NCBI GenBank assembly: GCA_031385045.1
Contig: JANNBC010000031.1
Coordinates: 1 to 54,018, forward strand
Origin: a bacterium
Lineage (GTDB): Bacteria > Bdellovibrionota_C > UBA2361 > CALJRW01
Reading direction: 5' to 3'
Length of the DNA stretch: 54,018 nucleotides
This document shows, in pieces, positions 18,370-39,577 of this stretch. Below the pieces are notes generated by a model. That model was not told the origin of the DNA. It did no database searches and saw only the letters and a program-made list of their open reading frames with translations. Numbering within the stretch: the first letter of the stretch is position 1; each line of letters starts with the position of its first letter. Position numbers and translations under genes: made by a program.

Positions 18370-19911
18370 ATGAAGATAACTAGTGATGACTTACTTTTCG
18401 CTGATAAGCCATCGGGGATATCTACCCATAGTCCAGATGTTAACATTTTAGGTTTTGTAGAATATCTCTCTAAGCAGTTGGCAGAAAAACTATATGTTTG
18501 TCATCGCCTAGATAAGGATACTTCGGGGGCAATTGTTTTTGCAAAATCCAAAGAGGTCGCTGCTGAAATTGCTGAATTATTTGAAAAGCATCAAGTTCAT
18601 AAAACTTATCGATTTGTTACTGATCGTAAACCACAATTGCCAGCTGAAATTTTGATTGAAACTGAAATTCTAAAAATCGGTAATAGTTATCTTTCCAAAA
18701 AATCCACGACTCCAAATTCTAAAACAGTCTTTAATAAAAAATTAGAACTAGGAGAATTCACTATTTGGGAAGCATTTCCAGAAACAGGTAAGACTCATCA
18801 AATTCGCCTTCATGCCAAAGAGTTAGGAATTGAAATCTTAGGTGATACAGAGCATGGGGGCTCATTCTTTCCGCGACTAATGCTTCACGCTAGCAATTTG
18901 TCATTTCAGATCAGGGGGAAGGATCTAACATTTAGTGCTCCTGTCCCCGAATCTTTTAGCTCAATCCAGATTCTTACTGATCAAGTATTAGCGCAGTATT
19001 TTACTTGCCTAGATCGCCGCCGCCGACTTTTTGATTTCCAATCTGATTCGACCAATACTATTCGGATCATTCATAATCAAGGGTGGGGAATGTCTGCCGA
19101 TTTACTCGGAGATTATTTGTGGTGCTATTGGTATGATCAGCGATTGCCTGGAGAGTCTGATCTAGAAAGAATTAAGAAATTAGCGAATAGTATTGGTGTC
19201 AAAGGTTGGAAAGTGCAGTTGATGGAGAATAGAGGTGTCGCTCCAGTAGCAGTGCATAGCTTATCAACCATTGATTGTGCAGATTGGCTTGGATTAGAAA
19301 ACCAAGTTAAGTATATTTTTAAAAGAGAACAAGGATACTCTCCAGGCTTATTTTTAGATCAAAGACAAAATCGTGCTTGGGTCAAAGCTCATAGTCTGCA
19401 AAAGAAAGTTTTAAATCTTTTTTGCTATACCGCAGGATTTAGTGTTTGCGCAGCCTTAGGAGGAGCATTCGAGGTCGTTAGTGTTGATACCAGTAAAGCA
19501 ACCTTAGACTGGGGACGAGATAATTTTATTGTTAATGAATTAGATCCTAGTAAGTACGAATTTTGGGCAGCAGATGCTCGGTATTTTATAGCAGGAGCTA
19601 AGAAAAAGAATCGTCAGTTTGATTTGATTATTTGTGATCCGCCCTCTTTTGCTAGAAATAAACAAGGTGTTTTTAAATTAGATCGAGATTTTCAGGATCT
19701 CTTGCAAGAACTCTATGAAATCTTAAGTCCGCAAGGAAGAATTTTATTTTCTCTAAACCTGGAGAAATGGAACTATCAAAAATTCCAAGAAGAGATCCGT
19801 CAGACTAAATTACCAGGCCTGCGAATTGAAGCTTCCCCAATTAGGGATCTAGACTATGAATTGCCAGGAGAAGAACTTGTGATGAAATCTTTATTTATTG
19901 TGAAAAGCTAG
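18370..19911 (+). CDS. RluA-family pseudouridine synthase fused to an RlmI/RlmK-like SAM methyltransferase
   Basis: KPSG, HRLDKDTSG and TGKTHQIR in the N-half; GLFLDQR, LNLFCYT and DPPSF in the C-half. Confidence 0.85.
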   Translation: MKITSDDLLFADKPSGISTHSPDVNILGFVEYLSKQLAEKLYVCHRLDKDTSGAIVFAKSKEVAAEIAELFEKHQVHKTYRFVTDRKPQLPAEILIETEILKIGNSYLSKKSTTPNSKTVFNKKLELGEFTIWEAFPETGKTHQIRLHAKELGIEILGDTEHGGSFFPRLMLHASNLSFQIRGKDLTFSAPVPESFSSIQILTDQVLAQYFTCLDRRRRLFDFQSDSTNTIRIIHNQGWGMSADLLGDYLWCYWYDQRLPGESDLERIKKLANSIGVKGWKVQLMENRGVAPVAVHSLSTIDCADWLGLENQVKYIFKREQGYSPGLFLDQRQNRAWVKAHSLQKKVLNLFCYTAGFSVCAALGGAFEVVSVDTSKATLDWGRDNFIVNELDPSKYEFWAADARYFIAGAKKKNRQFDLIICDPPSFARNKQGVFKLDRDFQDLLQELYEILSPQGRILFSLNLEKWNYQKFQEEIRQTKLPGLRIEASPIRDLDYELPGEELVMKSLFIVKS

Positions 19912-28388: not shown

Positions 28389-28437
28389 TGACAAATTTTG
28401 TCAAAGGAACTCAAGAAAAATCATCCTTTGACGATAA
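28389..28437 (+). promoter_or_regulatory. TGACAAA-T-TTTGTCA operator plus sigma28-like promoter upstream of pilB
   Basis: Perfect inverted repeat at 28389-28403; TCAA-N15-GACGATAA at 28411-28437. Confidence 0.55.
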
Positions 28438-28478: not shown

Positions 28479-30191
28479 ATGTCCTCAACTCGAATCGGTG
28501 AATTACTGGTTAAAGCAAATGTGATTACCCAAGAGCAGTTTCAAACTGTGCTGGCGGAGCCATCCTTTCAAGAGAAATTTATTGGAACCTTACTAGTTGA
28601 AAAAGAGTTCATGACTGAGCATGATTTTGTTGATGCCCTAGCCTCACAATATGGGATGCCTGTAGCTGAAATCGAAGAGCTAGAATTAGATCAAACATTA
28701 CTTAAATTAATTCCTGAAAGCCTAGCTAATAAGCACGGATTACTTCCAATCGTTAAGACTGAAAAATTTTTAACTGTGGCGATGTTCGATCCATCGAATG
28801 TTAATGCTTTAAATGAAGTTAAATTTATCACCGGACTGGATGTGCAGGTTACCTTATCCTCCGAAAGAGCAATTAAAGCGAAACAAGAAAATATTAGTAA
28901 AAGTAAAAATCTAAATCTCTCTGAGATTATGGGAGATTTAAACGAAGAAGAGCTTCAAGAATTAGAAGTTGTCGAAGAAGATGAAATAAATCTAACTGAG
29001 TTAGAAAAAGCTTCTGAAGATGCTCCTGTAGTAAAATTAGTTAATGCGATTTTGCATGACGCCATGAAGCGTAAAGCCTCAGATATTCATATCGAACCTT
29101 ATGAAAAAAGTTTTCGTGTTAGATTTCGAATCGATGGTGTCTTGCAAGAGATCATGAAGCCACCCATAAAATTAAAAAATGCGATGACTTCTAGGTTGAA
29201 GATTATGGCACGATTAGATATTTCAGAACGTCGATTACCACAGGATGGTCGTATTAAATTAAAATTACCGGAAGGCCGAGGGGAGATGGACTTTCGAGTA
29301 AACGTGTTACCGACATTATTTGGCGAGAAGGTTGTAATGCGTTTATTAGATAAATCAAATCTCCAATTAGATATGACAAAACTTGGGTTTTTCCCAGAAC
29401 AATTAGCTGATTTTAAAAGTGCAATTGGTAAACCACATGGAATGGTTCTTGTTACGGGACCAACAGGTTCTGGTAAGACAACAACACTTTATTCGGCATT
29501 ATCCGAGCTTAACCAAGTTGGTACAAATATTAGTACCGCGGAAGATCCAGTTGAATTTAACTTACCTGGAATTAATCAGGCTCAGATGCATGATGATATT
29601 GGATATAACTTCGCATCTGCGCTTCGTGCATTTCTTCGACAGGATCCAGATATTATCATGGTGGGGGAGATTCGTGATTATGAAACTGCCGAGATCGGAA
29701 TTAAAGCTTCACTTACCGGTCACTTAGTTTTATCTACGTTACACACTAACTCTGCTCCTGCTACGGTGAGTCGACTTTTAAACATGGGTGTTGAACCATT
29801 TCTTGTAGCCTCTTCCTTAAGTGTTGTAGTTGCTCAAAGACTTGGTCGGAAAGTTTGTGCAGGATGTTCGGAGCCTGATCCCGATCGAAATATTCCAGTT
29901 TTAATGGCAGCTGGTCTTAGTGAGCAAGAGGCCAAAACTTGTAACCTGCGACGTGGTGCTGGTTGTGATGTCTGTGGCAAGACTGGATATAAGGGTCGAA
30001 TTGCCTTCTATGAAGTTATGTTGATCACAGAACCACTAAAAGAATTCATTCTAAATGGCGCTTCTTCCATTGAGTTAGGGCGAGAAGCAGAGCGTAATGG
30101 GATGATAAGTTTAAGAAGATCCGGTTTATTACATTTAATGCAAGGTGGAACTACTTTAGAGGAAGTACTAAGGGTAACTACAGTTGATTAA
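28479..30191 (+). CDS. pilB: Type IV-A pilus assembly ATPase PilB
   Basis: MshEN-like RIGELLV, ASDIHIEP, GPTGSGKTT, LRQDPD and Cys zinc motifs. Confidence 0.95.
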   Translation: MSSTRIGELLVKANVITQEQFQTVLAEPSFQEKFIGTLLVEKEFMTEHDFVDALASQYGMPVAEIEELELDQTLLKLIPESLANKHGLLPIVKTEKFLTVAMFDPSNVNALNEVKFITGLDVQVTLSSERAIKAKQENISKSKNLNLSEIMGDLNEEELQELEVVEEDEINLTELEKASEDAPVVKLVNAILHDAMKRKASDIHIEPYEKSFRVRFRIDGVLQEIMKPPIKLKNAMTSRLKIMARLDISERRLPQDGRIKLKLPEGRGEMDFRVNVLPTLFGEKVVMRLLDKSNLQLDMTKLGFFPEQLADFKSAIGKPHGMVLVTGPTGSGKTTTLYSALSELNQVGTNISTAEDPVEFNLPGINQAQMHDDIGYNFASALRAFLRQDPDIIMVGEIRDYETAEIGIKASLTGHLVLSTLHTNSAPATVSRLLNMGVEPFLVASSLSVVVAQRLGRKVCAGCSEPDPDRNIPVLMAAGLSEQEAKTCNLRRGAGCDVCGKTGYKGRIAFYEVMLITEPLKEFILNGASSIELGREAERNGMISLRRSGLLHLMQGGTTLEEVLRVTTVD

Positions 30192-30412
30192 ATGGGTAAA
30201 TTTGTAGCAGTTTTTTTATGCTAAAACTTTAGTTTAGGAATAAACTTGGCGAAACTAAACTGCTGATAATTATAAGAAATTATAATTAAGAAAGAATTTT
30301 TTTGGTAAAAGATAAATTAAATTTTCTTTTACCAAGTGTAATTTTGATTTTTAAATATTTCAGATTTGGCTTACCCCAATTTTTGAAATCACTATCATAG
30401 CGGAGAACAAAT

Positions 30413-31633
30413 ATGGGAAAGTTTAAATGGGAAGGTACCAGTCCATCAGGTAAAGCTGTTAACGGTGTTATTGAGGCAAATAATAAGCAAGAAGCTTTTA
30501 ATTATCTTAAGAAGCAACGAATCACGCTAGATTCTTCCAAGGTAACGGAAGTGGAAGCTGGTTTTAACATGGAGCTTAAGATTCCTGGCTTTGGTCCAAA
30601 AGTTAAGCCACGTGATGTAGTAATTTTTACAAGACAGTTTGCTACAATGATTGATGCTGGTTTGCCATTAATCAAAGGTATCGAAATTATTGCTAACAGT
30701 AGTGAGAATCCAGCGTTCAAGAAAAGTTTAATGGACGTTAAGAACAATGTGGAAACAGGGATGACCTTAGCGGATGCCATGGCTAAACAGCCAAAAACAT
30801 TTGATGAGCTTTATTCCAACATGGTTAGAGCTGGGGAGAATGGTGGTATTCTTGATATCATTATGGAACGACTCTCGATCCAGATGGAAAAATCTATGAA
30901 GTTAAAACGTGAAGTTAAAACTGCAATGATTTACCCCAGCGTTGTAGTTTCAGCAGCCTGTATTGTAACCTCTGTACTTTTGATTTTCGTAATTCCAACC
31001 TTTGCCGAGATGTTCTCGGGGTTTGGTTCTGAATTACCAATGCCTACACAGATCGTTATTAATTTGTCGAACTTCTTTGTTGCCAATTGGTATTTGATTT
31101 TTGGTGGAGTTGGATTGTTAATGTATTCCTTCTTTAAATCCTTGGCTACTCCTCGGGGACAGGAAGTTTTGCACCCAATCTTTTTAAAGCTTCCAGTCTT
31201 TGGAGATATCATTCGGAAGGTAGCAGTTGCTAGATTCACACGAACTTTGGCTACGATGTTAGCATCTGGGGTGCCAATCTTAGATGCCTTAGCAATCTGT
31301 GCCAAAACTTCTGGTAATAAGGTTGTTGAAAATGAGATCTATCAGACAAGACTATCAATCTCTGAAGGTAAATCGATGATTGAACCACTGCAAGACTCAA
31401 GTATCTTTCCTCCAATGGTAGTTTCGATGATTGAGGTCGGTGAAACTTCGGGTTCTTTAGATGCGATGTTAATTAAAATTGCTGATTTCTATGAAGAGGA
31501 AGTGGATAACGCGGTCGGTGCAATGAAACAATTAATCGAGCCAATTATGATTCTAGTTTTGGGAACTGTTATTGGTGGATTGGTAATTGCGATGTACTTA
31601 CCGATCTTTAAAATGGGATCAATTGTTAGCTAA
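30413..31633 (+). CDS. pilC: Type IV pilus platform protein PilC (T2SS F family)
   Basis: FTRQFATMIDAG, AMIYP, GETSGSLD and AMYLPIF. Confidence 0.95.
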   Translation: MGKFKWEGTSPSGKAVNGVIEANNKQEAFNYLKKQRITLDSSKVTEVEAGFNMELKIPGFGPKVKPRDVVIFTRQFATMIDAGLPLIKGIEIIANSSENPAFKKSLMDVKNNVETGMTLADAMAKQPKTFDELYSNMVRAGENGGILDIIMERLSIQMEKSMKLKREVKTAMIYPSVVVSAACIVTSVLLIFVIPTFAEMFSGFGSELPMPTQIVINLSNFFVANWYLIFGGVGLLMYSFFKSLATPRGQEVLHPIFLKLPVFGDIIRKVAVARFTRTLATMLASGVPILDALAICAKTSGNKVVENEIYQTRLSISEGKSMIEPLQDSSIFPPMVVSMIEVGETSGSLDAMLIKIADFYEEEVDNAVGAMKQLIEPIMILVLGTVIGGLVIAMYLPIFKMGSIVS

Positions 31634-33622
31634 ATGAAAAGCGAGAAACTTCAAAAAGCATTATTGTTCGAAGAGGGAACTACTCTGTTGTTATACATCA
31701 GAATAGTTACTCTTTCGATCATGTTGTTCTTGGCTTCTTATAATCACTTCGTCTACGGAATTACCTCGGAAAGTTTGTTTGTTGGTGTTGCCATTTTCTT
31801 TGGTATCACAGCAATTAGCGGGATATATTTATCACATTTTAATGCTGGGCAGTGGTATGCCACAATTGAAATGTTTTTTCATACACTTTTAATTTCATTA
31901 ATCATTTATAATACTGGCTTAGCTGTGAGTCCTTGGTTAGTTTTATATCTACCACTGGTTATGGCGGCTTCAATTATTAACGATCGAAGTTATGGAATTT
32001 TAATCGGGATGGTTTGTGTCACAACTTACCTCCTAATGATCCAAAACCAGTTAAATACTTGGATTGAAATATCGGTTTTAACTAAACCAGTTGCAATTCC
32101 ACCTCAGGGTTTAAATGCTCAATTCTTGGGATTAATATCCTCGATGGTTTTAACTAGTGTGGCAGTTTCTTATCTGAAAAGACATTTGTCGAATAAGAAT
32201 TTGGAGTTAAGTAAAGCACGACGAGATTTAGAATTATTATCATCTGAAGAATTAGCTTTATTAGATAGTGTGGATCTAGGCATTCTCTTTCATGATCGTT
32301 ATTTCAAGCTACTTAAGGCTAATGAATGTGCTAAGAGGATCTTAAATATTGAAGACCACGAAGTTCATGAAAAACTATTACAAAACATTATCCCGCAATA
32401 TCAAGAATTATTTAAACAAGATGACTCACATCGAGAAGTAAAGATTATCAGTAATCACGAAACCAAAGAGTTAAGTCTTAAGTTTAAATTGGCAAAATAT
32501 AAAAATGGTAATCAGTTATTAATTTTCCAAGATATTACTGAATATCTTAAAGCTAAAAATCAAGTGGAGCAGCAGAATCAATTTGCTCGTTTGTTAGCAA
32601 CCAATAATGATTTAAAAAATATGAACTTTGATTTTAATGATCATTTTGTCGGAGAAACTTCCGAAATGAAAACTATCTTTGATACAATTATTAAGGTGGC
32701 ACCGTCTAACGCGAATGTCTTGGTTTATGGGGAATCTGGTACCGGAAAAGAATTAGTTGCTCGGGCAATTCATAGCTCAAGCCCAAGAAAAGAAGAGATT
32801 TTTGTCGCTGTAAATTGTGGCGCAATTCCTGAAAGTTTGATTGAGTCTCAGCTGTTTGGTCATCGTAAGGGCTCCTTTACTGGTGCTACTGCAGATTTTA
32901 AGGGTTATTTTGAACAAGCAACTAGCGGGACTATTTTTCTTGATGAGATTGGAGAACTGCCCGTTCATTTGCAGACAAAATTATTGCGAGCTATTCAAAC
33001 TAGAAAAATTCGACCTGTAGGTAGTGAAAAGGAAATTGATATCGACGTGCGAATAGTTGCAGCAACAAATAAAAATTTAGAAACTTTAATTGCTGAAAAT
33101 CAATTTCGAGAAGATCTTTACTATCGACTAAATGTAATTGGAATTGCATTACCACCACTAAGAGATAGAAAGAAGGATTTGCCATTACTGATTAACTTTA
33201 TTATCAAGAAATTTGCGTTTAGTGAAAATATTGTAATCCCACCGGAGACTCTAGAGTTACTAAGTAATTATAATTATCCAGGTAACATTAGAGAGTTAGA
33301 AAATATTTTAGAACATGCTATCGTTATCGGTGGTAGTACAATTCTTCCTGAGCATTTGCCAGCTTCTTTAAGTAGAGCGGCACAAAGCTCATCAATTATT
33401 GCTGCGAGCCAAGCAACGGAAACAAGTATCTTGGAATCCGCGCATATTTTATTTGATGAAGAGTTCAGCTTAGATCATCATTTGGCCAAAATTGAACGGC
33501 AGTATTTAGAATCTGCTTTAGATGAGTCTCAAGGGGTTAAAACTAAAGCAGCTGAATTGCTAGGAATGAACTTCCGTTCGTTTCGTTATCGTCTTCAGAA
33601 GTTTGGCTTAAGCCAAGATTAG
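31634..33622 (+). CDS. Membrane-anchored sigma54 activator: PilS-like TM and PAS-like region fused to a PilR-like AAA+/HTH
   Basis: About 6 TM helices, a PAS-like segment ending in FQDITE, then GESGTGKE, GSFTGA, FLDEIG, FREDLYYRL, PGNIREL and the HTH AAELLGMNFRSFRYRL. No H-box, HATPase or receiver domain. Confidence 0.85.
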   Translation: MKSEKLQKALLFEEGTTLLLYIRIVTLSIMLFLASYNHFVYGITSESLFVGVAIFFGITAISGIYLSHFNAGQWYATIEMFFHTLLISLIIYNTGLAVSPWLVLYLPLVMAASIINDRSYGILIGMVCVTTYLLMIQNQLNTWIEISVLTKPVAIPPQGLNAQFLGLISSMVLTSVAVSYLKRHLSNKNLELSKARRDLELLSSEELALLDSVDLGILFHDRYFKLLKANECAKRILNIEDHEVHEKLLQNIIPQYQELFKQDDSHREVKIISNHETKELSLKFKLAKYKNGNQLLIFQDITEYLKAKNQVEQQNQFARLLATNNDLKNMNFDFNDHFVGETSEMKTIFDTIIKVAPSNANVLVYGESGTGKELVARAIHSSSPRKEEIFVAVNCGAIPESLIESQLFGHRKGSFTGATADFKGYFEQATSGTIFLDEIGELPVHLQTKLLRAIQTRKIRPVGSEKEIDIDVRIVAATNKNLETLIAENQFREDLYYRLNVIGIALPPLRDRKKDLPLLINFIIKKFAFSENIVIPPETLELLSNYNYPGNIRELENILEHAIVIGGSTILPEHLPASLSRAAQSSSIIAASQATETSILESAHILFDEEFSLDHHLAKIERQYLESALDESQGVKTKAAELLGMNFRSFRYRLQKFGLSQD

Positions 33623-33874: not shown

Positions 33875-33916
33875 GACAAAATTTGTCAGATTCTTGGTTA
33901 TTGACAATTATTGTTA
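33875..33916. promoter_or_regulatory. Tandem palindromic upstream activator sites for pilA
   Basis: GACAAAATTTGTC (33875-33887) and TGACAATTATTGTTA (33902-33916), about 75-115 bp upstream of the -24 box. Confidence 0.55.
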
Positions 33917-33989: not shown

Positions 33990-34006
33990 TTGGCATGTTT
34001 ATTGCA
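33990..34006 (+). promoter_or_regulatory. Sigma54 (-24/-12) promoter of pilA
   Basis: TTGGCATGTTTATTGCA closely matches YTGGCACG-N4-TTGCW with exact GG-N10-GC spacing. Confidence 0.85.
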
Positions 34007-34121
34007 TAAACTATTTTAGGTTTTTTTGAAACATATTCATAGTTTGCTTCATCGAATACCTTTAATAATATACAAAAACTTGTTTACTTAGGTTTACAGT
34101 TTAACTTTTTTGGAGAAAACA

Positions 34122-34487
34122 ATGCGTAAAGAGAGTGGATTTACATTAATCGAACTTCTAGTGGTAGTTGCTATTATCGGTATTCTAGCTGCAATCGCTA
34201 TTCCTCAGTTCCAAGCATATCGTCAACGTGGATATGATTCTGGTGCTAAGTCTGACTTAAGAAATGCTGCAACTGCAGAAGAAGCTTATTTCATTGACTT
34301 TGATACATATGCTACTTGTGCCAATGCTGCTGCATGTACAACTGCCTTAGCTGGACTTCAGTCAGTATCTGCTGGTGTTGGTCTTGCAATGACAGGAAGC
34401 ACAACTCAGTTCTCAGGAACAGGAGCTTCTGCTAGTGGATCAGGATCTACATTCAGATGGAACTCTGGTAACGGTGGATTGTACTAG
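34122..34487 (+). CDS. pilA: Type IVa major pilin
   Basis: [30 protein letters not shown] before the ATG at 34122; has its own sigma54 promoter and terminator. Confidence 0.92.
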
Positions 34488-34505
34488 TACAATTAAACCC
34501 GTAAG

Positions 34506-34533
34506 AAGCTGGGCTTAGTCCCAGCTTTTTTTT
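34506..34533 (+). terminator. Rho-independent terminator of pilA
   Basis: AAGCTGGG-CTTAGT-CCCAGCTT hairpin running into a T tract. Confidence 0.85.
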
Positions 34534-34783: not shown

Positions 34784-36352
34784 TCAATCTTTATCGGAAT
34801 CTTCCTTAGTCACATTATGATTTTCCAAGAGTGGAACTTGTCCCTGTTTGGCTAGATAGTATTTTTGGACTAGATCATTAATGATTGGATCTTCAGGATT
34901 TAATGCTAGATATTTGTTAGTCCAATATTCAAAACCTCGCCAATTTCCAGCCATTAAGTAGCTGTAGATCATCTTTTGGGAGGCGACTATAAAACTAGGA
35001 TCTCTAAATAGTGCTTCTTTATAAAAAATAATTGATTTTTCGTATTCCTCGATTAATTGAAACTCATTTCCTAAATTAAAAGGAGCCTTGGGAGAGGCTG
35101 AGTTGTCGATCATTGTTTGGTGAAAAAGAGAAATATTGTTTTTCCAGATTGGTAACCTTAAATTTGTATGGACTAAGAGTACTACAAAGTAGATTGTCAG
35201 TACTAAAGTTCGATGCTTAGGAATCTTAAGTAAGAAGGAAACAATAATTACTATCAGCCCAATACTTGGTGTATAAGCCAAGCGATCAGCCATAAATGTT
35301 CCAATTGGTACTAACAGGTTAATAGTTAGGCTGAAGGTTATTAAAAACCAGAACCCCCAAAAAGCTAAATCCTTTTTTTTGTAAGTATTAAAAGCAACTA
35401 ATCCCAAAAAAATACTAGCAAGTAGCATCGCCGAATATCCTGGCCAAGATGATAGGATGTCCGTAAAATATTTATAGGGTAAGGAGTAATCAGCAGAGAG
35501 ACTAAGTGGTAAGATAATCAGTCTCAAGTATTCTCCCAGAAGATAGATCGCAGGCACTAAGCGAGAAGAGAGATTAAGGTGAAATAATGGATTTTCAACT
35601 AGGTAGGTGGAATGTGGTGCCTTAGTTAGAAAGTTGTGATCCAAGGTAAGCTTTCTAAGTAAAATATAGCTACCGACAATAATTACTAAGATAGTAAAGG
35701 AAGTAATTAATGTACGCTTAGCCGGTTGCCCCTGTTGCTTGAGAAAGATTAGATAGATGATCGGGCAGATGCCAACTAGGGTAATCGCTGATTCTTTAGC
35801 AAGGAAAGCTAAGAATAAAAATAATCCAAATAGAAGATTTCTAATTAAAGTAGGTTTTTCCAGAAGTTGATAGAAGTTGATTAGCCCCAGAAGTCCAAAG
35901 ACGCAAACTAAGATTTCCGAGCGATTGTAAATATTGGCAATTGCTTCAATATGTATAGGGTGTACCAAAAAAATCATGGTACTAACAAAGGCTAAGCGAT
36001 AATTCTTAGAAATAGTCAGGATAAATTTGTAGACCGTGAGTGTTGCAATTCCGTGCAGGATAATATTACTTATGTGGTAAGATATAGGATTCATTCCAGA
36101 AATTAGGAAGTTTAGCTTAATGCTGAGCATCGTTAGTGGGCGATAGAGGTCGCCCGGGTTAGTTGGTAAGGCAAATACTTGGAGAATTTCCCAAATATTT
36201 AAATTCTTAGAAATATAAGGATTCATAATCACCAGTCCAATATCATCATAGGTGAATTGGTAGGTGAGGCTTGGTAAGAAGATTAAAGTAACAAGCGAAA
36301 AAAGATAGATTTCCGGGAGATACTTTTGGAAAATAAATGGCTTTACTGACAT
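34784..36352 (-). CDS. TMTC-like GT-C membrane glycosyltransferase with C-terminal TPR
   Basis: FTYDD, YRPL, VHPIHIEAI, AKE, LSADY and DRLAYTPS motifs plus a TPR tail. Likely start is the ATG at 36352; the ORF is open to 36424. Confidence 0.75.
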   Translation of the reverse strand: MSVKPFIFQKYLPEIYLFSLVTLIFLPSLTYQFTYDDIGLVIMNPYISKNLNIWEILQVFALPTNPGDLYRPLTMLSIKLNFLISGMNPISYHISNIILHGIATLTVYKFILTISKNYRLAFVSTMIFLVHPIHIEAIANIYNRSEILVCVFGLLGLINFYQLLEKPTLIRNLLFGLFLFLAFLAKESAITLVGICPIIYLIFLKQQGQPAKRTLITSFTILVIIVGSYILLRKLTLDHNFLTKAPHSTYLVENPLFHLNLSSRLVPAIYLLGEYLRLIILPLSLSADYSLPYKYFTDILSSWPGYSAMLLASIFLGLVAFNTYKKKDLAFWGFWFLITFSLTINLLVPIGTFMADRLAYTPSIGLIVIIVSFLLKIPKHRTLVLTIYFVVLLVHTNLRLPIWKNNISLFHQTMIDNSASPKAPFNLGNEFQLIEEYEKSIIFYKEALFRDPSFIVASQKMIYSYLMAGNWRGFEYWTNKYLALNPEDPIINDLVQKYYLAKQGQVPLLENHNVTKEDSDKD

Positions 36353-36994
36353 GTAGATTTTAGCAAACCCCAAAAGCAAAAAAGCGAATCTAGTCGCATT
36401 AAAGTAAAGCCATGGTGAGAACATTTTTCAAAACCATTGGGTGGCGACTCACGGATTTAGTATATCAAGCCAAAGATGCTTTTACCAGCTAGCATAACTT
36501 ATTGGTCCCCCGAAAGTGGATCAATAATACAAATCAATAAATTTTAGGTCTGTTTGGAACAAAGCTATTTTGGTACATTTGTTTATGGAATAGACTTGCC
36601 CATTCGGCATTGATTGTTCCTTGTTTGTTTTAATTCTAAATAGAATACTTTTTGAGTTAAATTCGACTGCTAGTGGCCAGTTTTTGGTTCAAGACCAGAT
36701 CCGTTTAAGGTATTTTTTAGAAAAGATAATTTATTTCGAATTATCTTAACGCAAGTTTCGTCAAATATGATGTTATACTTGAGTTAAACTCAAATCTAGC
36801 GCGCTAGATTTTTTATTTATGTTTATTACTGGTGCAGAATGAAACTATGTTCATTCTCTAAATAATAAATTAGGTTTAGCCTCATAATGAGAAAGCTAAA
36901 CTTTAATAAAATATGAGTAAGTTTTATTCTGTATCAGTGAAACTCTAATCTTAAAGATTAAGAATAATTTTTGCTGAATTAAAATTAAATAACT

Positions 36995-37885
36995 GTGTAT
37001 AAATTATTAATCAGTTCCATTCTGTTATTCTTGTGTATTCATTCCTATCAGGAGTTAGAGGTTAAAAATTTACCACCTCAACTTGGTGCTGAGCAGGAAT
37101 TACTGTATTTTCCTAAAGGTGAGAACCTGCGGGCGGCTTCTTTTGGATTTCAAAACGTTTTATCTAATTATCTTTGGTTTCAAACAGTAAACTACTTTGG
37201 CAAGCATTATCGCATGGACCAAAATTATTACTGGTTAGCACATATGTGCAATGTGATTACGGATTTAGATCCATATCATAAAGAGCTGTATGAGTTCTGC
37301 TCTTATTTGGTCGCTTGGGAAAATAAAAATACAGAAGCAGGACAAAAGCTTCTATCCAAAGGAATTGAGTTTAATCCGGATTATTGGAGATTTTATTATC
37401 TCCGTGGAATGAATCATTTAATGTTTGATAAAAACGAAGCAGCAGCTCGGGATGACTTTATTGCCGCCTCGAAGGCTCCTGATGCGCCATTCTTTGTTAA
37501 TTCTTTAGCAACAAAACAAATTGCTAACTTAAATAATCCAGAAACTGCAGTAAGTTTTTTAATTGAAATGATCCAAAATGCTAAAGATGCTAATCAGAAA
37601 GCCGCCTTGCAGGGACATTTAAAGAAGACACTTAACGAGATTGCTATTGTTAAGCTAGAAAAGTATCGCGATCAATATAAAGAAAAGTTTGGAGAGTTAC
37701 CGAAGTCGATTAAAGATTTAAGAACAGTTGGTGCCTTAGATACTGAGCTGCTTGATCCTAACGGTGAACGATATCGGATTGATGAGAAAGGGGAGATTTC
37801 ATCTAATCAGATTAAAGAACGAATTTATTTATTAAAACCTAAAGAAGAAAAAGTAAAAGAAGAAAAAAATGAACAAAGCAATTGA
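36995..37885 (+). CDS. TPR-like pilus accessory protein (Myxococcus PilG / Geobacter XapA-like)
   Basis: N-terminal anchor, W...NYFG, TDLDP and DPNGERY motifs; sits after pilA and before an ABC pair. Confidence 0.6.
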   Translation: MYKLLISSILLFLCIHSYQELEVKNLPPQLGAEQELLYFPKGENLRAASFGFQNVLSNYLWFQTVNYFGKHYRMDQNYYWLAHMCNVITDLDPYHKELYEFCSYLVAWENKNTEAGQKLLSKGIEFNPDYWRFYYLRGMNHLMFDKNEAAARDDFIAASKAPDAPFFVNSLATKQIANLNNPETAVSFLIEMIQNAKDANQKAALQGHLKKTLNEIAIVKLEKYRDQYKEKFGELPKSIKDLRTVGALDTELLDPNGERYRIDEKGEISSNQIKERIYLLKPKEEKVKEEKNEQSN

Positions 37886-38807
37886 ATTTAAAAATTTTTC
37901 TTATGCTTACCAAAGTGACTGGACTTTTTTAAAAAAGACCTTTGTTAATGGTCTAAATTTAGAAGTTCAAGAGGGAGAGTCATTTGGCTTTCTGGGTCAC
38001 AATGGTGCGGGCAAAACTACTTCCATAAAATGTTTAGTGGGCTTAACTAAGCCAACTAAAGGGGAAGTGTTAATCTTTGGTAAGAGCTCTAGAGATCACA
38101 CGGCGCGCCAGGATATCGGTTTTTTACCAGAGCAACCGTATTTTTATGATAATATTAAAGCTGCTGAAGTAGTAGAAATGGCCGCAGTTTTAAAGGGATT
38201 ACCATCTTCTCAGATTAAAAGTGAAGTTGCTCGAGTGCTCGCTAAGGTTAAGATTGATCATAAGAGCAAGTCTAGGCTTAGGAATTTATCAAAAGGACAG
38301 GTGCAAAGAGTTGCAATGGCACAGGCCTTAGTTGGGAATCCAAAGATTTTAGTTTTAGATGAGCCTTTCTCTGGCTTGGATCCAATAGGTCGTAAGGAAT
38401 TTGCTGATTTATTGTTTGAAGCTAAAAAAAGCGGCACTACAATTTTTATTTCTTCGCACATCTTAAGTGATATCGAATTTCTTTGTGATCGCGTGGCAAT
38501 TATGGCTCAAGGATCTTTACAGGGCGTCTTTGATTTAAAAGATTTGCCTCAAATTCTACCTGGGCGGTATTCTTTGAAATTAAAGAATTATGCACAAGTC
38601 GAAAGTCAGCTGTTAGCTTTAACTAACAACTTCAACAATCAGGATAAATTTTTATATTTAAATTTTGAGCAAAAAGAAGTTGCTGAGCAGGCACTAAGGC
38701 TTTCTGTTGACTCAGGAGCGTTAGTGGAGGAGTTCCGATTTGTCCATGGAGGATTAGAGGAATTATTTTTACAACAAACTAACAAAGCTAAGGAGTTAGG
38801 AAAGTGA
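37869..38807 (+). CDS. ABC transporter ATP-binding protein (PilH-like)
   Basis: GHNGAGKTT, LSKGQ and LDEPFSGLD. Confidence 0.9.
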   Translation: MNKAIEFKNFSYAYQSDWTFLKKTFVNGLNLEVQEGESFGFLGHNGAGKTTSIKCLVGLTKPTKGEVLIFGKSSRDHTARQDIGFLPEQPYFYDNIKAAEVVEMAAVLKGLPSSQIKSEVARVLAKVKIDHKSKSRLRNLSKGQVQRVAMAQALVGNPKILVLDEPFSGLDPIGRKEFADLLFEAKKSGTTIFISSHILSDIEFLCDRVAIMAQGSLQGVFDLKDLPQILPGRYSLKLKNYAQVESQLLALTNNFNNQDKFLYLNFEQKEVAEQALRLSVDSGALVEEFRFVHGGLEELFLQQTNKAKELGK

Positions 38808-39577
38808 GAAAAGTTTATATTTTAGCCAAAAATACCTTTCGAGAATCAATTCGCAGCAAGATTTTGTATAGCATTGTATTGTTTGCGATTTTAGTTGTAG
38901 TGGCATCATCCATCTTTGGGCTAGTAACTATTGGTGACAAGGTTAAAGTATTAAAAGATTTTGGCTTGTTTGCTTTAAATCTTTTTGGTGTTGCCTATGT
39001 GGTGATTACTGGTTCCGCTCTACTCTTTAAAGAGCTTAGTCGAAAAACAATTTTTAATATTTTAGCTAAACCAATTCGTCGTTCAGAATTTATCTGGGGT
39101 AAATTTCTAGGAATGTTAATGACTCTATTCTTAATGTTAGGAATGATGAGCCTCGCCCTAATGGTTTTCTTATACTTTTATAGTACCAAGGTTGATTATA
39201 ATTTGATGCTCGCAAGTTATTCTGTATTTCTACAAGTAATGATGGTGTGCTCGCTAGTAATTTTACTGTCTAGTATTTTTGTAACTCCATTTTTAAGTGG
39301 GGCAATAACCTTTGGTCTGTTTTTAATCGGCAGGTCCTCTGAGGTGATTTTACAATTGATTGAATCATTCAAACTTCAAGGGATATCAGAATATATTTTT
39401 AAAACTATTTATTATCTGTTACCTAACTTAGCTGCGGTTGATATTAGTAATAAAGTAGTTCATAATTTCCCAGTACCAGCAGAGGTTTTGATTTGGAATT
39501 CAGTTTACGCTATCGGGTATGCAGCTTTAGCAATCATCCTTGCCAGTCATTTTTTCTCTCGCCGAGAGTTCAATTAG
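38804..39577 (+). CDS. ABC-2 type permease (PilI-like)
   Basis: AKNTFRE, LAKPIRR..F..GKFLG and FSRREF; multi-TM. Confidence 0.85.
   Translation: MRKVYILAKNTFRESIRSKILYSIVLFAILVVVASSIFGLVTIGDKVKVLKDFGLFALNLFGVAYVVITGSALLFKELSRKTIFNILAKPIRRSEFIWGKFLGMLMTLFLMLGMMSLALMVFLYFYSTKVDYNLMLASYSVFLQVMMVCSLVILLSSIFVTPFLSGAITFGLFLIGRSSEVILQLIESFKLQGISEYIFKTIYYLLPNLAAVDISNKVVHNFPVPAEVLIWNSVYAIGYAALAIILASHFFSRREFN

Follow-up and report, generated by a model that had tools for sequence, protein, structure and literature searches.

A PilS-PilR fusion protein conserved across most of an uncultured Bdellovibrionota-labelled phylum is a candidate membrane-tethered sigma-54 activator of pilA

The window studied here is a stretch of 54,018 nucleotides of bacterial DNA (contig JANNBC010000031.1, assembly GCA_031385045.1, lineage Bdellovibrionota_C), and between its type IV pilus genes pilC and pilA it carries one gene, for a protein of 662 amino acids (aa), in the place of the two-component pair pilS-pilR. 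This gene is an in-frame join of the sensor half of PilS to the output half of PilR, without the kinase and the receiver, and it is conserved across most of an uncultured phylum labelled Bdellovibrionota. The fusion very probably acts from the membrane, independently of phosphorylation, to activate pilA and, by analogy with PilS of Pseudomonas aeruginosa, we lean slightly towards the whole chain, namely a membrane-tethered sigma-54 activator of pilA with pilin as its signal; pilin sensing as such would have about an even chance.

The fusion gene and the origin of its two halves

The gene and its parts are located as follows.

31634..33622, + strand: PilS-PilR fusion gene, 662 aa (open reading frame, Pfam, AlphaFold2)
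31682..32179, + strand: six-helix PilS-type membrane domain, about residues 17-182 (profile, alignment, model)
31700-31702, + strand: Arg23, counterpart of PilS Arg24 (alignment)
32180..32269, + strand: cytoplasmic helix prolonging transmembrane helix 6 (TM6), residues 183-212, with a heptad-like hydrophobic period of about 102 degrees
32270..32536, + strand: PAS domain, residues 213-301, lost in several relatives
32537..32641, + strand: PilS/PilR joint, i.e., the post-PAS helix (PilS-derived to about residue 321) and a short variable linker
32642..33391, + strand: sigma-54 AAA+ domain with lid; Walker A, GSFTGA, Walker B, arginine finger and sensor II intact
33470..33604, + strand: Fis-type helix-turn-helix (HTH) of PilR type

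The gene is a single open reading frame (ORF) whose first base lies directly after the pilC stop, and pilC (PF00482) on one side with a type IV pilin (PF07963) on the other puts it in the pilS-pilR position that a first-pass annotation of this DNA had assigned to it. In Pfam searches, the C-terminal half matched Sigma54_activat (residues 339-504), the lid (510-586) and HTH_8 (617-657), and the N-terminal half gave weak matches to 6TM_PilS (23-186) and PAS_8 (208-261); on the N-terminal half alone 6TM_PilS reached 15.4 bits, below its cut-off of 27, and all NCBIfam scores of the protein were likewise below their cut-offs. HisKA, HATPase_c and Response_reg were absent from the 16 Pfam families returned at E<=1, the same test giving clear kinase and receiver domains in control PilS and PilR proteins, and the earlier claim that the kinase and receiver are missing was thus upheld. 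AlphaFold2 models (mean predicted local distance difference test score 79.9 for the whole protein and 88.4 for the N-terminal half) contain six membrane-length helices, a helix running to residue 212, a PAS fold (216-300), a helix (302-328) and a low-confidence linker (324-335) just before the AAA+ domain, so that the initial description of about six TM helices, a PAS-like segment and a short helix is borne out by the models and by Pfam, weak as the PAS hit is. A Foldseek search with the whole model retrieved AAA+ structures only, and the GESGTGKE, GSFTGA and arginine-finger motifs are present in the translation.

The junction is crossed by assembled contigs: contigs of run X1, possibly the source run, cover the entire stretch, and a contig from a second study (X2, 32404-32652) runs across the helix and linker with zero differences. 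An assembly error or a private deletion is ruled out by these contigs and by the presence of the same fusion in relatives throughout the phylum.

The similarity of the N-terminal half to PilS, suspected at first reading, is supported by profiles, hit lists and alignment. Of 31 family members, 25 gave a 6TM_PilS match at E<=0.05, the strongest reaching 6.9e-17, and a search of this half against 1.84 billion proteins listed 150 matches, which by motif and local profile were classed as 33 fusions, 97 PilS-type kinases and 20 fragments or unclassified proteins. A profile match to pilS from a pilS-pilR-pilA locus scored 99.85% over 314 columns. In an alignment of 49 fusions with 99 PilS-type kinases, Arg23 was conserved in 98% of either group and Asp83 in 96% and 99%, Gln79 was common to both, and residues of the TM3-TM4 loop and of PAS were shared; P. 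aeruginosa PilS Arg24 stands in the same context as Arg23 in a published alignment (a supplement of PMC6528607). The resemblance to PilS through common descent stops some 10 residues short of the phospho-histidine, close to the H-box where the join had been placed initially, and the linker that follows is variable, with no conserved sequence. On the output side, in a tree of AAA+/HTH halves that also included 16 other activators, 15 fusions fell together with PilR of pilS-pilR loci and apart from those activators (support 89, with 97 for an inner clade), which together with Pfam and the motifs confirms the intact AAA+ domain and PilR-like HTH of the first-pass annotation. For the window protein, the membrane domain by itself did not separate PilS from RegB-type kinases; PAS, helix and gene order do separate it as PilS-type.

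Distribution and number of origins

Among 61 relatives, the N-terminal half was matched in 36, and in the loci fetched for them the fused gene stood directly after pilC, the exceptions being two frameshifted loci and one match that is an unrelated PAS kinase. In one locus of genome G020 (L038:6393-8464) a frameshift within PAS breaks the fused gene in two, through either an assembly error or a secondary split. To avoid selection by the feature itself, pilC was searched in 81 genomes of the class, which equals the phylum in the samples drawn; 28 of the 29 pilC loci from other orders were fetched, and 26 of these 28 carried the fused gene, one being cut by a contig end and one lacking the fusion. 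Across the phylum, a family profile matched the N-terminal half strongly in 54/96 genomes (at least 85% complete), and three further genomes (G007, G033, G063) hold divergent forms recognised by their locus. Genus g10 accounts for 28 of the genomes missed by the profile; since its sister genus keeps the gene (G106), the absence in g10 looks like a loss. The g10 loci (L094, L095, L097, L098) are without fusion and palindrome and keep the sigma-54 motif before pilA. Five tested genomes without the fusion had no PilR-like match above 48%, and five such genomes keep rpoN.

Overall, the fusion is conserved phylum-wide at 35-45% identity, the N-terminal half being far more variable than the AAA+ half, and the concern that it might be a recent private deletion, raised in the first-pass annotation, does not stand. 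No ordinary PilS kinase appeared among the 150 matches of the fusion profile listed for the phylum (214 weaker ones lie beyond the list), the median score on the family profile being 167 bits for PilS-type kinases, against 56 for the RegB-like protein; neither a separate pilS/pilR pair after pilC nor a fusion member without the membrane part was seen there in the fetched loci of phylum relatives. The nearest Atlas cluster is labelled Bdellovibrionota, and a second cluster of like architecture is labelled Binatota.

Outside this clade, the same design was found after pilC in P0076, P0244 and P0150, and also in 3/251 genomes (G140, G146, G156; G+C 33-68%) of the phylum of locus L100, recorded as Thermodesulfobacteriota, a count that is a lower bound, as 4 candidates per genome were scored under a strict cut-off. 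The halves of these outside fusions are closer to ordinary PilS and PilR, and their joints differ from those of the main clade. The best trees split them from the main clade, and a single clade was not rejected (approximately unbiased test, p 0.285; p 0.097). A metagenome scan returned 24 loci, all of them ordinary pilS or pilR, with zero fusions; a first contig scan found no relative, and a second, using AAA+ patterns, had background activators and ordinary pilS-pilR loci among the matches listed. Two metagenome contigs (L180, L201) carry pilR before pilS, the reverse of the usual order. Longer relatives (721-2055 aa) were also sought, and only PAS kinases were obtained.

The pilA promoter, signal transmission and rival explanations

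The candidate regulatory sites in the window are the following.

33991..34005, + strand: pilA sigma-54 -24/-12 promoter motif, TGGCATGTTTATTGC
33875..33887, unstranded: palindrome GACA-N5-TGTC (GACAAAATTTGTC), predicted activator site by motif, 116 bp before the promoter
33903..33915, unstranded: second GACA-N5-TGTC copy, one mismatch
28390..28402, unstranded: exact GACA-N5-TGTC before pilB, with no sigma-54 motif beside it

The downstream sigma-54 promoter and palindromic sites described in the first-pass annotation are present and conserved far above chance. In 34 pilA upstream regions from fusion-bearing lineages, taking the first pilin of each locus and using Markov controls, the -24/-12 motif occurred in all 34 (control mean 0.2), and GACA-N5-TGTC occurred exactly in 21 and with at most one mismatch in 29 (controls 0.15 and 3.7); by sequence motif, the upstream palindrome lies about 80-190 bp before the promoter. 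No palindrome was found in the 6 loci of lineages without the fusion, and the same palindrome precedes pilA in 3 of 7 ordinary pilS-pilR loci. Before pilB, too, a one-mismatch palindrome stands in 23/47 loci, against 4.0 in controls, and in most cases no sigma-54 motif accompanies it, which hints at a possible feedback site on the pilB-pilC-fusion operon. The genome of the window (G000) has rpoN, as identified by motif; a sigma-70 promoter scan gave chance level.

Strict palindromes number three in G000, all before pil genes: pilA, pilB and a second pilin on contig C55. This 2.8 Mb genome contains 38 ORFs, dispersed among many contigs, whose motifs indicate a class III pilin-like signal, and only 2 of them have an upstream sigma-54 motif, both with a palindrome as well. 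The second pilin (G000:C55:6373-6977) has a palindrome and a -24/-12 motif of its own and is flanked by an integrase-like gene on one side and mobile-looking ORFs on the other; it is probably a further target of the fusion.

Regarding function, 54-56 of the 56 full-length fusions retain intact motifs for catalysis and sigma-54 contact. In the membrane domain, codon changes between the window and G001 (74 synonymous, 22 non-synonymous) indicate purifying selection. The PAS-to-AAA+ distance is 36-44 residues in 44/45 measured members and, in PAS-less members, TM6 is separated from the post-PAS helix by 41 or 48 residues, one heptad apart, in 7/10; the tree requires 6 changes to account for PAS loss, of which no fewer than 2 are forced. 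In P. aeruginosa, inner-membrane pilin acts on PilS and lowers pilA expression through the PilS phosphatase (passages of PMC13170266 and PMC6058289), with PilS Arg24 reported as necessary for pilin contact and pilin E5 and P22 mattering as well (a passage of PMC6528607). Because the kinase and the receiver are gone from the fusion, a signal could only pass mechanically, and the heptad-like period, the near-constant PAS-AAA+ distance and the 41/48 spacing together suggest a dimeric coiled coil that gates ring assembly.

Under the proposed mechanism, the fusion would dimerise like PilS, and pilin on the membrane domain would turn a coiled coil running from TM6 through PAS to the joint, which would keep the AAA+ domains apart or paired in an inactive form. 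Once growing pili take up this pilin, the AAA+ ring would assemble at the GACA-N5-TGTC sites of DNA drawn up to the membrane, and would open the sigma-54 promoter of pilA; the polarity, with pilin switching the activator off, is taken over from P. aeruginosa PilS. More tentatively, and with somewhat less than an even chance, these proteins may form a family of integral-membrane sigma-54 activators in which intrabilayer pilin gates the AAA+ ring mechanically, without phosphate or diffusible messenger, a family fixed at the root of one phylum and arisen again elsewhere by the same pilS-pilR deletion.

Several observations weigh against this proposal. A sigma-54 motif precedes pilA in 4 of the 6 loci of lineages without the fusion, so that another activator can serve pilA there or the motif is a relic; the three strict palindromes of G000 equal the chance expectation of 3.3, and hence only their placing is informative; in G106 the pilin begins 37 bp after the fusion, leaving no room for a promoter, and in G156 neither motif precedes the pilin. 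Three of the 10 PAS-less members are off register, one at 51 residues and two poorly aligned. On the PilS membrane profile the window protein scores 39.6 bits, barely more than the 37.4 of the RegB-like kinase of the window's genome and below the family median of 56.8, and the conserved arginine is also found in that kinase, so Arg23 may be structural; at positions 79 and 83, moreover, the window protein carries E and H in place of the family's Q and D. E5 and P22 of the pilin occur generally in type IVa pilins. The related genomes are not independent samples, and activation by the fusion, pilin binding and polarity are proposals read from sequence. A model of the complex between the membrane domain and the pilin helix, run without controls, scored 0.01 and counts neither for nor against the proposal.

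In a rival account, the fusion would activate pilA from the membrane in answer to another signal, such as a lipid-soluble molecule, the state of the envelope or the neighbouring PilC platform, to whose gene the fusion gene is always coupled. The best structural match of the membrane bundle is the six-helix anchor of the diguanylate cyclase ImcA (8wcn, Z 13.3, root-mean-square deviation 4.0, 184 aligned), followed by membrane adenylyl cyclases (Z 12.9 and 11.8), although a Z near 13 can reflect a common helical-bundle arrangement; this likeness implies a fold that serves other inputs, so that another ligand is conceivable. The RegB-like kinase has a related membrane domain, and P. aeruginosa PilR answers cues besides pilin (a passage of PMC6058289). 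We nevertheless regard another signal as unlikely, given that residues common with PilS are kept along TM1-TM5 and that the target is pilA, where pilin feedback is the known logic (passages of PMC13170266 and PMC6058289). An unregulated activator, with the receiver brake deleted and the membrane part serving for anchoring or localisation, would account for the repeated loss of PAS, the greater variability of the N-terminal half and the disordered, variable linker at the joint; it is improbable, however, because the purifying selection on the membrane domain, its conserved buried charged residues and the helical register preserved after PAS loss exceed the needs of an anchor, and no member without the membrane part follows pilC in the fetched loci.

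Regulated proteolysis might instead free a soluble AAA+/HTH part that alone reaches the DNA. The low-confidence linker at 324-335 would offer a site, ring assembly by a membrane-bound dimer should be sterically demanding, and some membrane-bound regulators are controlled in this way (titles in the reference list of PMC10269533); yet the linker has no conserved sequence and the conserved register fits mechanical coupling better, which makes cleavage a distinctly improbable account. Lastly, the gene could be a remnant without activator function, or the product of assembly error or private deletion. The PilS/PilR chimera Rsp of Neisseria has been reported without control of pilE (a passage of PMC6528607) or as repressing it (a passage of PMC10269533), and some lineages did lose the fusion gene, but phylum-wide conservation, intact ATPase and sigma-54 contact motifs, the presence of rpoN, a conserved promoter and operator, and contigs across the joint largely refute this explanation and leave it next to no probability. 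For the last step, control of activator assembly by membrane pilin, the proposal above is the best reading.

Neighbouring genes and comparison with known regulators

The other annotated features around the fusion gene are given below.

28479..30191, + strand: pilB
30413..31633, + strand: pilC (PF00482), whose stop abuts the fusion start
34122..34487, + strand: pilA, type IVa pilin with E5 and P22 (PF07963); ORF as listed 34110-34487
34503..34530, + strand: terminator-like hairpin after pilA

The pilA start is most likely the ATG at 34122, preceded by a GGAGA ribosome site. In the window, pilT is not found between pilB and pilC (28479-31633), unlike in the ordinary pilB-pilT-pilC-pilS-pilR loci (L103, L112, L128, L196); in most relatives, an rpoH-like sigma factor and an M23 peptidase lie divergently before pilB. 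After pilA (34784-39577) the minus strand encodes a TMTC-like membrane protein that contains TPR; next are a TPR-like protein, an ABC ATPase and a permease, which follow pilA in many relatives and which we take to be PilG/H/I-like. Farther upstream, one ORF (18370-19911) combines an RNA pseudouridine synthase domain with an S-adenosylmethionine methyltransferase. Elsewhere in the genome (G000:C24:120067-122538), a pilin-like ORF lies between a RegB-like 6TM kinase and a RegA-like regulator. The RegB/RegA type of system consists of a 6TM kinase without PAS and a small receiver-HTH partner, and differs from the fusion, which has PAS and AAA+; the names pilT, RegB/RegA and NtrC-like are provisional, assigned by motif.

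With the PilS-PilR systems (P. aeruginosa; Nps-Npa of commensal Neisseria; loci L103, L138, L196), the fusion shares the 6TM-PAS-helix sensor half, including the six-helix membrane domain with a TM1 arginine (the window protein alone being below the Pfam cut-off), the AAA+/HTH half, the place after pilC and the sigma-54 promoter before pilA, along with the same palindrome in some ordinary loci. Those systems, however, are two proteins with a histidine kinase core and a receiver on the activator, and the fusion is one protein without HisKA, HATPase_c, phosphatase motif or receiver. It is therefore outside the two-component family by definition, though in its place, and the known route, in which pilin turns on the PilS phosphatase (a passage of PMC13170266), cannot operate because these parts are absent.

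The fusion has the make-up of a bacterial enhancer-binding protein in its AAA+ domain with Walker A/B, a GAFTGA-type loop, arginine finger and sensor II. As in one-component sigma-54 activators (NifA, PrdR, TyrR-like), its sensor sits directly on the AAA+/HTH part with no phosphotransfer, but the input is a six-helix membrane domain from a kinase instead of PAS or GAF, the inputs described for one-component sigma-54 activators of D. vulgaris (a passage of PMC4641369). Transmembrane transcription regulators such as ToxR and CadC are also one-component and act on DNA from the membrane, with a DNA-binding domain and membrane helices in one chain as predicted for the fusion; they bind DNA without an ATPase ring, in contrast to the AAA+ domain here.

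The closest precedent, which the first-pass annotation did not consider, is Rsp of Neisseria gonorrhoeae, whose original description is reportedly that of Carrick et al. in 2000. Like the fusion, Rsp joins the membrane part of PilS to the C-terminal part of PilR in a chimera. Unlike the fusion, Rsp is called a remnant, and pilin transcription in its species relies on the housekeeping sigma factor; its role is disputed between pilin repression (PMC10269533) and none (PMC6528607), and the passages on Rsp in these two papers name only its DNA-binding domain. By comparison with those descriptions, the fusion family keeps AAA+, rpoN, promoter and operator phylum-wide, so it does not fit an Rsp-type remnant, which would have no activator role and sit in a lineage that has given up sigma-54 for pilin. 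In searches of the open-licence literature we found no report of the fusion family or of a characterised integral-membrane sigma-54 activator; the string 'sigma54' is absent from the passages and nine supplements of the survey PMC10269533, which hold 72 regulators with HTH_8, and the passages of PMC6978683 have nothing on the fusion design.

If the proposal is true, a textbook two-component system would have collapsed into one membrane protein, an idea raised, with Rsp as the example, in a passage of the survey of membrane-bound regulators (PMC10269533); unlike that example, the ATPase, promoter and operator are intact across the phylum. Pilin sensing would be separated from phosphorylation, so that the motion passed on by PilS becomes testable in a simple reporter, and the natural PAS-less variants offer a ready series for the register of the coiled coil. 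The design also raises the question of how an AAA+ ring assembles and DNA loops while anchored in the membrane and, if the proposal holds, it would mean that the PilS sensor is able to pass its output to a kinase in one setting and to an ATPase ring in another.
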